A stretch of DNA of 64,000 nt from an uncultured Clostridia bacterium (GCA_947628085.1 CANQYM010000004.1:114134-178133); one strand, 5' to 3'; counted from the stretch's first letter, positions 1,247 to 50,658 are shown. The notes: generated by a model not told the origin, from the sequence alone. Numbers and translations are program-made.

Positions 1247-4031
1247 TTATTGATTTTTACCACAACAATTCTTATATTTCTTACCACTACCGGCATGGAC
1301 AAGGATCATTTCTTCCAATCTTTGGACCACTATTTACTATTGGTTGAGGTTTTGAAGTTTGATTTGTTTTTGGCACATTGTTCTCGCCTTCAATGTTCAT
1401 ACTATTTATTGCTGAATTATCTAATCCAGCATTTGTAATATTTACAGTAGAACTTCTTTGGATTGGTCCGCTTGATTTAACAACATGAAGCATAATTTTT
1501 GCAACTTCCAATTTAATTTGAGCTATCATTTCATCAAACATTTCCCCGCCTTCAAATCTATATTGAACAACAGGGTCTTTTTGACCATAAGCTCTTAAGC
1601 CAATACCATTTTTTAGCTCGTCCATTGCATCAATGTGATCCATCCATTTTCCGTCAACTACTTTTAAAAGTACTATTCTTTCTAGTTCTCTAATATCATC
1701 TCCAAATTCTTTTTCTTTAGCTTCATAATTTGCTAAAGTCTTTTCCTTCAATTCTTTTAAAAGTTTATCGGCATTAATTTTTTCTTCTTTTAATGCATCT
1801 ACTTCTCCAATGTTTAATGTAACTTTTATTTCATTAAGTAAAGCATCTTTATTAATTTTATTTTCTTCAATTTCTTGTCTATAAGTGTCTACTATCATTT
1901 CACAAGCAGACTCTATCATGTCTACGATATTATTTCTAATATTTTCTCCATCAAGAACAGATCTTCTTTGTGTGTATATGATGTCTCTTTGAACGTTCAT
2001 AACATCATCATAATTTAAGATATTTTTCCTTATTGAAAAGTTTCTTCCTTCAACCTTACTTTGAGCACTTTCTATAGTTTTAGAAATTATTTTTACTTCT
2101 ATAGGTAAATCTTCTGGAATGTTTCCTTTATCAAATATTCTAGTAATCATATCCCCACCGAAGATTTTAAGAAGATTATCGTCTAATGCTAAGTAAAATC
2201 TAGTTTCACCAGGATCTCCTTGACGACCACTACGACCACGAAGCTGGTTATCAATTCTTCTTGATTCATGGCGTTCTGTACCAATGATTTTTAATCCGCC
2301 TGCTTCAATTACTAGTCCTTTTTCATATTTTATTTCATCATCAAATTTTTTCTGTAATTCTTTAAAAGTTTTTCTTGCAGATAGAATTTCTTCATCATCT
2401 GTTTCATTAAATGCTGTTGCTTGCTCAATTAAATATTCTTCATATTTTTGCTTTCTCATTTCTTGTTTTGCAAGATACTCACTATTACCACCAAGCATAA
2501 TATCAGTACCACGTCCTGCCATGTTAGTTGCAATAGTAACTGCACCATATTTACCAGCTTGGGCTATAATTTCAGCTTCTTTTTCATGGTTTTTAGCATT
2601 TAATACTTCGTGTTTTATTCCTTCATTTGATAATAATTTACTTAATTTTTCTGAATTTTCTATTGAAACAGTACCAACTAAAACTGGTTGTCCTTTTTCA
2701 TGGCTTTCCTTAATATCATTAATTACAGCTCTAAATTTTGCAGGTTCATTTTTATAAATAATGTCTGTTTGATCTTTTCTAATTAATGGTTTATTTGTTG
2801 GAATTTCAATAACATCCAAATTATAAATTTCTCTAAATTCTGCTTCCTCCGTCATTGCAGTACCAGTCATACCAGATAATTTAGTATATAATCTAAAATA
2901 ATTCTGGAATGTAATAGTTGCTAAAGTTTTTGATTCATCTGCAATTTTTACATTTTCCTTAGCTTCTATTGCTTGATGAAGTCCATCATTATATCTTCTT
3001 CCATACATAATACGTCCTGTAAATTCATCTACAATAAGAACTTCTCCATCTTTAACGATATAGTCAATATCTCTTTTCATAATTCCATTTGCTCTTAATG
3101 CTTGTGTTATATTATGAACTATATCTGTGTTTTGAATATCATTTAAATTTTCAAGATTAAATTCTCTTTCTGCCTTTTCAATACCTTTTTGAGTAAGTGA
3201 TGCAGACTTTGCTTTTAAATCGACAATATAATCATATTTTTCATTATCTTCACTTTGATCTATGTCTTTAACATCCTCTTCTATGATTACTTTTGCTTTT
3301 AATCTTTTAACAAAATTATCAGCTCTTTTATATAAGTCTGAAGATTTGTTTGCTCTACCAGAAATAATAAGTGGTGTACGAGCTTCATCAATTAAAATAC
3401 TATCTATCTCATCTACGATAGCATAGTTTAATTCTCTTTGAACCATATCTTCTTTATGGATAACCATATTGTCTCTTAAATAGTCGAATCCAAATTCATT
3501 ATTCGTTCCATAAGTGATATCTGATCTATATGCTTTTTGCTTTTCTTCGTGTGGCATTCTTCCATAAATAAGTCCAACAGAAAGTCCTAAAAATCTATAA
3601 ATTTTACCCATCCATTCACTATCTCTTTTAGCTAGGTATTCATTAACTGTAATAACATGAACACCTTTTCCTGTAAGAGCGTTTAAATAAACTGGTAATG
3701 TTGCAACTAAAGTTTTTCCTTCACCTGTTTTCATTTCGGCAATTCTACCTTGATGTAGAATAATACCACCTATTAATTGAACATCAAAATGTCTTAACCC
3801 TATAACTCTTCTTGATGCTTCCCTAACTACTGCAAATGCTTCTGGTAATATATCATCTAAAGTTTTGCCTTTTGCTAATTCTTGTTTAAAATATTCTGTT
3901 TTTGCAGTTAACTCTTTATCTGTTAATTTCTGCATTTCTGGCTCTAAACTATTGATTTTTTCAACAATTGGCATTACTCTTTTTACTTCTTTTTCACTAT
4001 AATTTCCAAAAATCTTGCCAAAAAGTCCCAT
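1247..4031 (-). CDS. secA: Preprotein translocase ATPase SecA, with an apparent +1 frameshift near 1291 (ORF track calls 1287..4031)
   Basis: SecA DEAD-motor and wing/scaffold motifs throughout (MGLFGKIFG…, [21 protein letters not shown]). The tracked ORF ends …GRNDPCPCR*. Deleting one base of the plus-strand accGgc restores the canonical zinc-binding tail [22 protein letters not shown]. Confidence 0.9.
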
Positions 4032-8988: not shown

Positions 8989-9150
8989 GCTAGTTTATTA
9001 TGTTTATATACTTTTATAATTGACGCGTAAGCGACCAACCGAAGCGTAAGCGAAGGGCGATTGGAGCAATCTTCCTTTTTAATTAATTTTAAAAAAAGAA
9101 GATTGCGACACCAAGTCAATAATAAAAGTATATAAACATAATAAACTAGC
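8989..9150. repeat. Palindrome-centred repeat element, copy 1: core 9021-9118 (TGACGCGTAAGCGACCAACCGAAGCGTAAGCGAAGGGCGATTGGAGCAATCTTCC…GGAAGATTGCGACACCAAGTCA) flanked by a 32 bp copy-specific inverted repeat
   Basis: Core is about 90% identical to copies at 14599-14694, 50480-50574 and 55800-56012; the flanks 8989-9020 and 9119-9150 are reverse complements with 1 mismatch. Confidence 0.85.
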
Positions 9151-9233: not shown

Positions 9234-9329
9234 ATGTCAAAGAAAAACAATAATTCAAAAGGATCTAATAACTCAAACTCAAATAACAATAACAACAATA
9301 ATAACAGCGACAAAATGTCAAAAAATTAG
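9234..9329 (+). CDS. Candidate small ORF (31 aa, MSKKNNNSKGSNNSNSNNNNNNNSDKMSKN), Asn/Ser-rich
   Basis: Consensus SD aaaggaggtg 8 nt upstream of the ATG; followed by the terminator at 9412; below the ORF-track length cutoff. Confidence 0.35.
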   Translation: MSKKNNNSKGSNNSNSNNNNNNNNSDKMSKN

Positions 9330-18796: not shown

Positions 18797-20764
18797 GTGT
18801 TTAAGTCGTGAGAGAATTTTTCTAATTCTTTAATTTTGTCCCTTAATTCTGCTGCTTTTTCAAATTCCATTTTTCTAGCGAACATAAGCATTTCATCTGT
18901 TAATTTTGAAATAATCTCTTCAATGCTTTCATCTTCATTAATATCATATTTACTTTGAATGTCTTCAACTATTGTTGCTTTGATAGTATCACGAACCGAT
19001 TTTCTAATTGTTTGTGGTGTTATATTGTGTTCAACATTATACTTTTCCTGCAAAGCTCTTCTTCTATTTGTTTCAGAAATTGCTTTCTCCATTGACTCAG
19101 TTAGCTCATCTGCATACATTATAACTCTACCTTCTGTATTTCTAGCAGCACGACCTATTGTTTGGATTAAAGAACGTTCTGAACGTAAAAATCCTTCTTT
19201 ATCTGCATCTAGAATTGCAACTAAAGATACTTCCGGAATGTCTAAACCTTCTCTTAAAAGATTTATTCCAACTAGAACATCAAATTCTCCAATACGTAAA
19301 TCTCTAATTATTTCCATTCTTTCTAATGCTTTTATATCTGAATGCATATAACGTACTCTAACACCTGCATTTCTTAAATATGCTGTTAAATCTTCTGCCA
19401 TTTTTTTAGTAAGAGTAGTTACTAAAACTCTATCACCTTTTTCTACTTGTTTATCTATTTGTTCCATTAAATCATCTATTTGATTTTCTGTTGGTTTTAC
19501 TTCTATTTTTGGATCTAAAAGTCCTGTTGGACGAATTATTTGCTCTACAACATTACCTTTGCTATGCTCTTTTTCATAATCTGCAGGTGTTGCACTAACA
19601 AAAATACATTGATTTATTCTTTCTTCAAATTCTTCAAATTTAAGAGGCCTATTATCAAAAGCAGATGGAAGTCTAAATCCATAATTAACTAATGATTCTT
19701 TTCTTGCTCTATCTCCATTATACATTGCTCTTACCTGTGGAATTGTTGCATGTGATTCATCTATAAGTAAAAGAAAATCTTTTGGAAAATAGTCGAATAG
19801 TGTATATGGTGGACTTCCTGGTTTTCTACCACTAATATGTCTTGAATAATTTTCTATTCCTTGGCAAAATCCAGTTTCTTTAAGCATTTCAATATCAAAA
19901 TTTGTTCTTTCTTCAATACGTTGTGCTTCAATCAATTTCTTATTTTGCTTAAAATATTCTACTCTTTCTTCCATCTCTTCTTCTATTGTTTCTAAAGCTC
20001 TTTCAAGTTTATCTTTACTTGTTACATAGTGAGAATTTGGATATATCATAACATGTTCTCTAGTTGCTATGGCTTTACCTGTAAGAGGATTTATTTCTGA
20101 AATTTTATCTATTTCTTCTCCCCAAAATTCAACTCTTATAGCTGTTTCTTCTTTATTAGATGGAAAAATTTCTAGAATATCTCCTTTTGCTCTAAAAGTT
20201 CCTCTTTTAAAGTCCATTTCATTTCTTGTATATTGCATATTTACAAGTTTTCTCATTATTTCATTTCTATCTCTTTCCATTCCAGGGCGAAGAGATACTA
20301 TCATATTTTCATAGTCTATAGGATCTCCTAATCCATATATGCAAGATACTGAAGCGACTATTATTACGTCTCTTGTTTCAAATAATGATGCTGTTGCAGA
20401 ATGACGAAGTTTATCTATTTCATCATTAATAGAAGCATCTTTTTCAATGTAGGTATCTGAAGAGGCAATATATGCTTCTGGTTGATAATAGTCGTAATAT
20501 GATACAAAATACTCAACATTATTATTTGGAAAAAACTCTTTGAATTCACTATAAAGTTGTCCGAGCTAGTGTCTTATTGTGTGCCAAAACAAGAGTAGGT
20601 TTTTGCACTTTTTCTATTATATTTGCCATTGTGAAAGTTTTTCCTGAACCTGTAACACCAAGAAGTGTTTGAAACTTTTTTCCTTCTTTAATTCCATTAC
20701 TCAAATATTCAATTGCTTCTGGTTGGTCACCAGTTGGTTTATATTCTGATATTAGTTTAAACAT
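18793..20764 (-). CDS. uvrB: Excinuclease ABC subunit B, interrupted by a +1 frameshift near 20563 (track pieces 20549..20764 and 18793..20304)
   Basis: N-terminal piece ends …[14 protein letters not shown] where UvrB has …NKTLAAQLY. Deleting the G of the plus-strand tccGagc restores …[35 protein letters not shown]… continuous into the second piece (helicase motifs, UVR domain at the C-terminus). Confidence 0.9.
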
Positions 20765-50443: not shown

Positions 50444-50612
50444 TTTTAAAAAAGTAGTACTTATATATTACTTTATAAGTGACGCGTAAGCGACCAACCG
50501 AAGCGTATGCGGAGGGCGATTGGAGCAATCTTCCTTTTATTTGTTTTAAAAAAGAAGATTGCGACACCAAGTCACGAGATAAAGTTATATATAAGTACTA
50601 CTTTTAAATAAG
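50444..50612. repeat. Palindrome-centred repeat element, copy 3 (core 50480-50574)
   Basis: Core as in copies 1 and 2 (2-3 substitutions); its own flanking inverted repeat gtagtacttatatattactttataag / cgagataaagttatatataagtactac. Confidence 0.85.
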
Positions 50613-50658
50613 AAAATATAAAAAAGAAGTCAATTTCTTAAATCGACTTCTAAAAATT

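Follow-up and report, generated by a model that had tools for sequence, protein, structure and literature searches.

A dispersed hairpin repeat of gut Clostridia that keeps its shape while its sequence drifts

Copies of the repeat in the window

The window analyzed here is a stretch of 64,000 nucleotides from an uncultured Clostridia bacterium, with a G+C content of ~27% and genes that lie nearly all on the - strand. It contains exactly five copies of an element of ~130-175 bp (typically ~165 bp) in which AT-rich arms surround a conserved core, and all five copies are on the + strand and intergenic. An earlier note, made from the sequence alone, had proposed five intergenic copies that are about 90% identical. 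Each part of that proposal is borne out: the median core identity between copies is 0.90, and the positions are recovered by the sequence itself, by two conserved 17-18-mers and by a covariance model. The 17-18-mers occur five times each, compared with the 0.09 and 0.01 occurrences expected from dinucleotide-preserving shuffles. The covariance model, derived from 71 members of the family and applied without filters to the entire window, scores the five copies at 74-118 bits, and all further matches in the window are at or below 21 bits and represent noise.

Copy 1 extends from 8989 to 9150 on the + strand and consists of a left arm (8989-9020), the clamp and core (9021-9118), and a right arm (9119-9150). 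The evidence for it comprises an inverted repeat (8965-9024/9115-9174), a model match of 114.5 bits and the presence of the same element in strain L165. Between copy 1 and the DUF7657 gene is a 31-aa, Asn-rich ORF (9235-9329, + strand) with a strong ribosome-binding site, which is called as a gene in all relatives, element-free ones included. Copy 2 (14572-14721, + strand) has its clamp and core at 14599-14694, matches the model at 111.2 bits, and is framed by an inverted repeat of 37 nt that is 95% complementary (14566-14602/14691-14727). A 17-nt sequence repeated 4.5 times in tandem (14726-14802) begins no more than a few bases from the right arm of this copy. Other tandem repeats that abut elements are a ~33-nt minisatellite in L148 (~1120-1290) and a 14-nt duplication in L001 (~2560-2590), and their position suggests slippage next to the hairpin. 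Further along the window, uvrB (18793-20764, - strand) is fragmented into a 71-aa N-terminal piece (20549-20764) and the rest of the gene (18793-20304), which are separated by ~245 nt in no frame.

Copy 3 (50444-50612, + strand) matches the model at 118.3 bits, and has its clamp and core at 50480-50574 and an inverted repeat at 50438-50476/50579-50617. Adjoining copy 3, and outside the element, is the intrinsic terminator of the upstream gene (50625-50651, - strand), which is of the ordinary type. Copy 4a (55771-55898, + strand) belongs to a short subfamily in which the upper part of the third hairpin of the core is gone (GCAATCTTTGATTGC); its clamp and core are at 55800-55869 and its inverted repeat is at 55755-55803/55866-55914. 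Copy 4b (55926-56042, + strand; 86.7 bits) has a degenerate left arm and 5' core, an intact 3' core, and a right arm at 56013-56042. Inverted repeats had been claimed for every copy, which holds for four of them; the copy originally placed at 55926-56012 has a right arm only. Next to this pair of copies, accA (- strand) consists of two ORFs that overlap, 56069-56536 and 56505-56906. The same split is seen in L146, L150 and L152 and in all close relatives, while the more distant species has a single ORF of 270 aa; the split could be a conserved frameshift or a real split gene.

The arms of the four copies are AT-rich and complementary over ~30-37 bp. They had been described as perfect palindromes, and the long complementary arms are indeed present, but the pairing is near-perfect, with 1-3 mismatches or a 1-nt bulge that usually take the form of a small bubble 2-5 nt from the core. 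The border between stem and core has also been moved, in that the stem reaches 4 nt into what had been assigned to the core (TGAC/GTCA) and these pairs covary between copies. Local alignment of the left arm with the reverse-complemented right arm of the same copy gives a median score of 54 out of 72. Arms of different copies give a median of 17 compared with 14 for shuffled arms, with 25% of the arm pairs above the 95th percentile of the shuffled controls. Local alignment scores are used for these comparisons because identity with free end gaps gave 0.68 for shuffled AT-rich arms and was dropped; an automatic arm-end finder overran into the AT-rich flanks (median 41 nt), and its value was not used. 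The claim that the outer stems differ from copy to copy is therefore largely correct, except that the inner ~8 nt (TTTATAAG) are semi-conserved and an outer TCTCTTA-like motif recurs, as judged by eye, in about a third of copies. A T-run after the arms is not consistent. Predicted G·T pairs in the arms number 103 on the + strand and 90 on the - strand, and arm mismatches are mostly A·A and T·T, with 27 A·C compared with 20 G·T. This lack of strand asymmetry indicates that complementarity of the arms is kept by a process which treats both strands alike.

Fold and orientation of the core

The order of parts on the + strand is the same across clades: a variable outer arm, a clade-conserved inner arm, a purine-rich bubble, a clamp of 4-5 bp, and the core. 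Following the clamp, the core of ~90 nt reads GCGTAAGCGA (hairpin 1), YCAA, hairpin 2, GCGATTGGA, hairpin 3 and GAC(AC)ACAA in the 5' to 3' direction, after which come the clamp, the bubble and the arm again. The first unpaired base past the clamp is an invariant G. Hairpin 1, which in copy 1 is a GC-GTAA-GC mini-hairpin at 9025-9032 (+ strand), is invariant in the 71 sequences, with GCGTAAGCGA being part of the pattern by which the metagenome subset was collected; loops of GTA and GCA occur in other copies. The unpaired joiners are nearly invariant in the aligned set, in which the bases of the search patterns (GCGTAAGCGAYCAA and GCGATTGGAGCAAT) are fixed by construction.

Hairpin 2 of copy 1 (9039-9056, + strand) reads CC-GAA-GC-GTAA-GC-GAA-GG and has a purine-purine internal loop of the tandem G·A type. 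In its general form, hairpin 2 consists of a C-G or A-T pair, a C-G pair, a tandem G·A or GAA/GAA loop, a helix of 2-4 bp that is GC/GC, AC/GT, AT/AT or GCAG/CTGC depending on the clade, and a free loop. Hairpin 3 (9066-9106 in copy 1, + strand; GCAATCTTC...GAAGATTGC) has the consensus GCAATYnnC...GnnRATTGC and an AT-rich tip that varies in length from 3 nt in the short subfamily to ~95 extra nt in L020 and L098. Inserts of ~95 nt in this tip (L020, 1729-1919; L098, ~3400-3600; L100; L106) carry a terminator-like hairpin of their own (AAATGGTT-GATA-AACCATTTTTT) and may be a nested element or a small transcription unit.

Several comparisons support this fold, with the limit that the pair and covariation counts are not phylogenetically independent and are inflated by related sequences. 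Standard pairs occupy 94.3% of cells in the 71 distinct sequences, compared with 80.8% in shuffles and 27-34% when the partners are slid, and the covariation score of 0.373 (0.143 in shuffles) was reached by none of 500 shuffles. All five pairs of the clamp are changed on both sides, as are all five pairs of hairpin 2, which has C-G (28 sequences) or A-T (42 sequences) as its outer pair; four of the nine pairs of hairpin 3 covary. RNAalifold independently finds the clamp, hairpin 1, a CCAA/TTGG helix (27-30/61-64) and hairpin 3. The RNAalifold pairing 32-59/33-58 was discarded in favor of 32-54, which has six compensated C-G to T-A changes. The core had been interpreted previously as one hairpin whose 36-nt one-sided bulge contains a tandem GCGTAAGCGA repeat; two small hairpins within a junction of several helices are a better description.

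Within the clamp and core helices, the + strand has 35 G·T compared with 7 A·C, or 23 compared with 7 if the uncertain CCAA/TTGG helix is subtracted, and the conserved G·A pairs of the core would read C·T on the opposite strand. Both observations indicate that it is the + strand which folds, as a single strand. On these comparisons, the clamp and core form a one-strand structure made up of the clamp, two small hairpins, possibly a CCAA/TTGG helix, and a third hairpin whose tip is free. No promoter- or terminator-like signal is conserved within the element; a - strand hairpin (GTGAC..GTCGC) followed by a T-run is present only where the clamp is TGAC.

The orientation of the folding strand is strongly biased. 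At loci with co-directional flanks it is antisense to the flanking genes in 33 cases and sense in 6 (binomial p = 1.4e-5), and it is on the C-rich strand at 36 loci compared with 14, a bias in which the effects of replication and transcription are not separable in these loci. Genes occupy the G-rich strand at 29 of 30 such loci, which makes the C-rich strand the leading-strand template. A comparable placement is described for sedentary chromosomal integrons, where the bottom (folding) strands of attC sites belong to the leading-strand template in 25 of 30, which limits folding and excision (PMC5371416).

Distribution, occupied sites and change in place

Contigs of the rabbit-gut MAG 'uncultured Clostridia bacterium Lapin-005__bin45' match the window at 93-98% identity. 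The earlier note proposed that copies be counted beyond the window, and a scan with one genome per species gives at least 41 copies in at least 30 8-kb blocks of Lapin-005__bin45; among the matches listed in that scan are copies in six other gut Clostridia MAGs. A scan of metagenomes adds 52 further copies on 51 contigs, including human-gut assemblies and a shrew sample. The combined core pattern has no match in viral contigs, where a 14-mer has 120 chance matches and the element is present in none, and blastn against phage and plasmid collections gives no match. Rfam assigns no family to the window at gathering thresholds, and at E <= 10 copy 1 yields only generic hairpin or AT-rich matches, all far under their own thresholds. 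The exact core sequences have no match in the literature searched, and a survey of structured RNAs in the human microbiome has none in its first 200 supplementary files. The family is real and apparently represents an undescribed ~165-bp repeat of low-G+C gut Clostridia. Copies lie near cmk, uvrA, purC, accA/fabI, topA and aspS, and are found downstream of the same housekeeping genes (topoisomerase, aspS, copper ATPase) in different species, which may reflect either long retention or repeated insertion into safe sites.

Several groups of copies have the same arms at different loci. The deletion in copy 4a, which had been taken for a natural loop deletion, is not private to that copy, as the same 32-nt arms and the same deletion in hairpin 3 occur at two other MAG loci, L070 (three times) and L081 (twice). 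Further pairs with the same arms and unrelated flanks are L053/L083a and L034/L082. In same-arm copies the arms end at the same base, and there is no complementarity into the locus-specific flanks. On this comparison of loci, the arms appear to belong to the element and to move with the core.

Two sites are available with and without the element. The accA-fabI gap is 18-25 nt without the element (L150-L159) and 245-388 nt with it, and the region upstream of cmk is 21 nt in L171 and L172 compared with 24+162+66 nt in the window. An empty site had been expected to consist of the palindrome without the core. Neither of the two element-free sites (L150/L151 and L171/L172), whose alleles are diverged, has a palindrome or a single copy of an arm. 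Filled alleles hold additional AT-rich DNA that is unalignable, so that neither insertion boundaries nor a target-site duplication was readable. Homologue searches and 11 locus contexts yielded no clean empty site, the empty alleles being too diverged for base-by-base alignment. Same-arm copies define the ends of the element, and their flanks give AT matches at chance level alone. At the site of copy 1, L174-L177 (~1330-1360) have 106 nt of other AT-rich DNA with a small core-free palindrome (ATAACAAAATTTGTAAATTTGTTAT), which is either a remnant or unrelated.

Orthologous copies have changed in place. Over 420 nt at copy 1 the window is 98% identical to strain L165, and the six differences within the element fall into three compensated pairs. 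In the arms, T/C is matched by A/G; in hairpin 2, C-G is replaced by T-A; and in hairpin 3, a T-run and an A-run of the upper stem are both shorter by one base. Copy 3 differs from its ortholog in L001 (Lapin-005__bin45) by a T/G difference that is present in both arms, and in L001 the core and inner arms of this copy are inverted between collinear flanks; a second, degenerate copy is also present there. Copy 4a is missing at the orthologous locus in L031, where the ortholog of copy 4b is one intact copy, and the junction of 4a and 4b is identical to a tandem-array junction in L070, which together indicate recombination between copies.

Imperfect inverted repeats are subject to template switching, an established type of replication error that homogenizes the arms, inverts the spacer and is able to lengthen the arms, as three reports describe (PMC8604942, PMC7202029, PMC13100816). 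Such switching accounts for the compensated changes, for the equal treatment of both strands in the arms and for the inverted core. It leaves unexplained the persistence of the bubble and of the G·A pairs, so that selection for the fold is also needed. In-place strand switching between the arms is the best explanation of the retained complementarity, and compensation in the arms is better explained by template switching than by selection alone.

Possible nature of the element

The reading favored here, with a probability of roughly 0.5, is that the repeat is a hairpin element of the non-autonomous kind, with a core that is read as single-stranded DNA. The element would be MITE-like in its size, copy number and intergenic location in low-G+C gut Clostridia, and the core would be the part which is read by a trans-acting factor, most probably at the replication fork and in the form of single-stranded DNA. 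The arms would move with the element yet carry little sequence information. Their complementarity would be kept by a strand-symmetric DNA process, template switching during replication (quasipalindrome correction), in which a switch turns a new arm mismatch into a compensated pair or reverts it. The same process would be able to invert the spacer and would be accompanied by slippage beside the hairpin, while selection for a foldable hairpin would preserve the bubble and clamp. Template switching across a spacer of 98 nt is an assumption of this scheme. One of three explanations offered in the earlier note, a structured single-stranded site whose outer stem is kept by compensation, agrees with the favored reading and is upheld by the three compensated pairs in copy 1 and the covarying helices.

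Some observations count against a DNA element. Neither a transposase, a recombinase nor a reverse transcriptase (RT) is encoded by the window ORFs that were scanned against Pfam (most ORFs of the window, those at 51420-54865 and 56948-63974 not among them), and the same ORFs include no integrase or invertase. Across ~775 kb of element-bearing loci, clustering of ORFs into paralogues returned orthologous housekeeping genes only, no insertion sequence sharing the ends of the element and no multi-copy ORF was found, and a crude motif scan detected no RT-like ORF. A gene of the HUH type, tnpA or RAYT was not seen in the window or beside copies. The arrangement of copies 4a and 4b looks like tandem-array recombination rather than transposition, and the occurrence of copies at the same genes in different species could reflect long retention for a host function.

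More specifically, though only tentatively, the repeat may represent a new class of structure-dependent mobile or recombining elements, in which all sequence-specific recognition resides in the folded single-stranded core and is carried out by an enzyme or by a retron-like RT in trans, with arms that drift and are rebuilt by template switching. Such an arrangement would be the reverse of that of classical transposon ends and of attC sites. Structure-recognized sites offer the closest parallels. Like attC sites, the element would be recognized through the shape of one folded DNA strand and not through its sequence, and it has unpaired bubbles or extrahelical bases, a variable tip and a bias in orientation that assigns the folding strand to the leading-strand template (PMC5371416). 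The attC sites, however, are conserved at the base of the hairpin (R''/R' boxes, RYYYAAC/GTTRRRY) and variable in the middle, whereas the element is variable at the base and conserved in the middle; attC sites also occur in cassette arrays beside intI, whereas copies of the element are scattered among housekeeping genes. REP/BIME-RAYT sequences and the IS200/IS605-derived PATE are likewise short repeats that form single-stranded DNA hairpins, depend on an HUH/Y1 enzyme in trans and behave in a strand-specific, replication-linked manner. REP sequences are imperfect palindromes of 20-40 nt with a conserved 5' GTAG and flank a RAYT gene, however, and the element is 4-5 times larger with a structured center of 90 nt, while PATE have subterminal hairpins and lack the long terminal inverted repeats that the element possesses.

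The Correia repeats of Neisseria, the pneumococcal BOX and RUP and the enterobacterial ERIC/IRU resemble the element in length (~100-170 bp), lack of an ORF, tens of intergenic copies per genome, a long hairpin formed from terminal inverted repeats, tandem or nested arrangement, and presence or absence among strains. They differ in having conserved terminal repeats and a variable center, whereas here a center conserved on one strand is flanked by drifting complementary arms, with neither a target duplication nor a parent insertion sequence found. Similarly, the element is short (<300 bp), non-coding, multi-copy and dispersed as MITEs are, but the conserved terminal repeats that MITEs share with a parent insertion sequence have no equivalent in arms that are barely above shuffled similarity between subfamilies. 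Quasipalindrome template switching explains homogenization of the arms, compensated doubles and spacer inversion without selection, as described in passages of the three reports cited above, but it is a mutational process rather than a family of elements, is known mostly for short repeats with short spacers, and leaves the conserved core, the bubble and the dispersal unexplained. By analogy, the element would work like attC- or REP-type structure-recognized sites and look like a MITE, while lacking defining features of each.

Alternatively, the + strand could be transcribed and the clamp and core could be a functional RNA, either protein-binding or a retron-like template RNA, in which the arms pair into a closing double-stranded stem that RNase III may process, and copies spread by duplication and recombination. 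This alternative is less probable than the favored reading, yet it is a serious rival. Strand-specific covariation, loops of the GNRA type (GTAA, GCAA, GAAA, GTGA), tandem G·A pairs and near-invariant joiners are the usual signature of a functional RNA. Single-stranded DNA and RNA are indistinguishable by sequence, and the GNRA-type loops and tandem G·A pairs are typical of RNA too. The layout resembles that of a retron ncRNA (msr-msd): a closing stem (a1/a2 in retrons) is followed immediately by a G, two small hairpins lie on the 5' side, and the 3' hairpin varies at its tip. In different species, copies have been retained downstream of the same housekeeping genes. The likeness to retrons is a resemblance only, as a retron is a single locus with an adjacent RT, and the element has >40 copies per genome, arms of 30-35 bp and no RT-like ORF near any copy by the crude motif scan. 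Since the folded strand is antisense to the flanking genes at 33 of 39 loci, read-through would carry the wrong strand, which argues against an RNA made in that way. Also counting against an RNA are the lack of a conserved promoter, including an inner arm (TTTATAAG) that lacks the invariant T at the end of a -10 box, the dispensable tip of hairpin 3, arms without G·U asymmetry, and the lack of an Rfam match even at E <= 10. The triloop variants GCGCAGC, GCGTAGC and GCGAAGC, which correspond to known extra-stable mini-hairpins of DNA, also weigh against an RNA.

Two accounts of the origin of the arms that were put forward in the earlier note fare much worse. It is improbable that each insertion makes its own arms by fold-back copying of the target flank (inverted target duplication). 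The difference in arms between subfamilies and the lack of a visible direct target duplication would fit such a process, and template switching can expand inverted-repeat arms according to a passage in PMC13100816. In same-arm copies, however, the arms stop at the same base and complementarity never enters the locus-specific flanks, and neither empty allele, both of which are diverged, has a single copy of an arm; as originally worded, fold-back duplication at insertion conflicts with arms that travel with the element.

Very improbable is the second account, in which the core homes into the loops of pre-existing palindromes or terminators and the arms are host DNA. It would explain why outer arms are largely unrelated between subfamilies (the medians of 17 and 14 given above) and why copies often lie shortly past stop codons. 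The identical arm-core-arm units at different loci and the lack of a palindrome at the empty sites do not support homing, and the arms also have inner and outer motifs in common. The terminator beside copy 3 makes the same point: an intrinsic terminator has a G+C-rich stem and a U-tract, whereas the arms of the element are AT-only over 30-35 bp, with no U-tract and no consistent T-run.

The least credible alternative is an inverton, in which a site-specific invertase would flip the core between the arms to control neighboring genes, since the opposite orientations of copy 3 in two strains with collinear flanks, and an inverted-repeat pair around ~100 bp, are set against repeats that vary where inverton repeats are conserved recognition sites, a core without a conserved promoter, no invertase among the window ORFs scanned against Pfam, an orientation bias (33 compared with 6) that is at odds with free flipping, and one flip seen in all.

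If the favored reading of a hairpin element with a single-stranded DNA core is correct, gut Clostridia are host to a widespread element, hitherto undescribed, in which a single-stranded fold is what is conserved and a mutational mechanism, not recognition of sequence, maintains complementarity between the inverted repeats. The element would imply a partner by which the core is read, and a rule, linked to replication or transcription, that governs which orientation survives. The family would also provide a natural record of bacterial quasipalindrome template switching, with compensated doubles, spacer inversion and slippage by the hairpin. Covariation in the arms need not mean selection, which bears on how 'compensatory evolution' in hairpins is read.

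The element also has consequences for sequence analysis. Finders of invertible promoters that are based on inverted repeats would flag it, and seven Logan unitigs (L092-L094 and L167-L170) end 161-162 nt upstream of cmk, at the border of the conserved core, indicating that the repeat breaks short-read assemblies.
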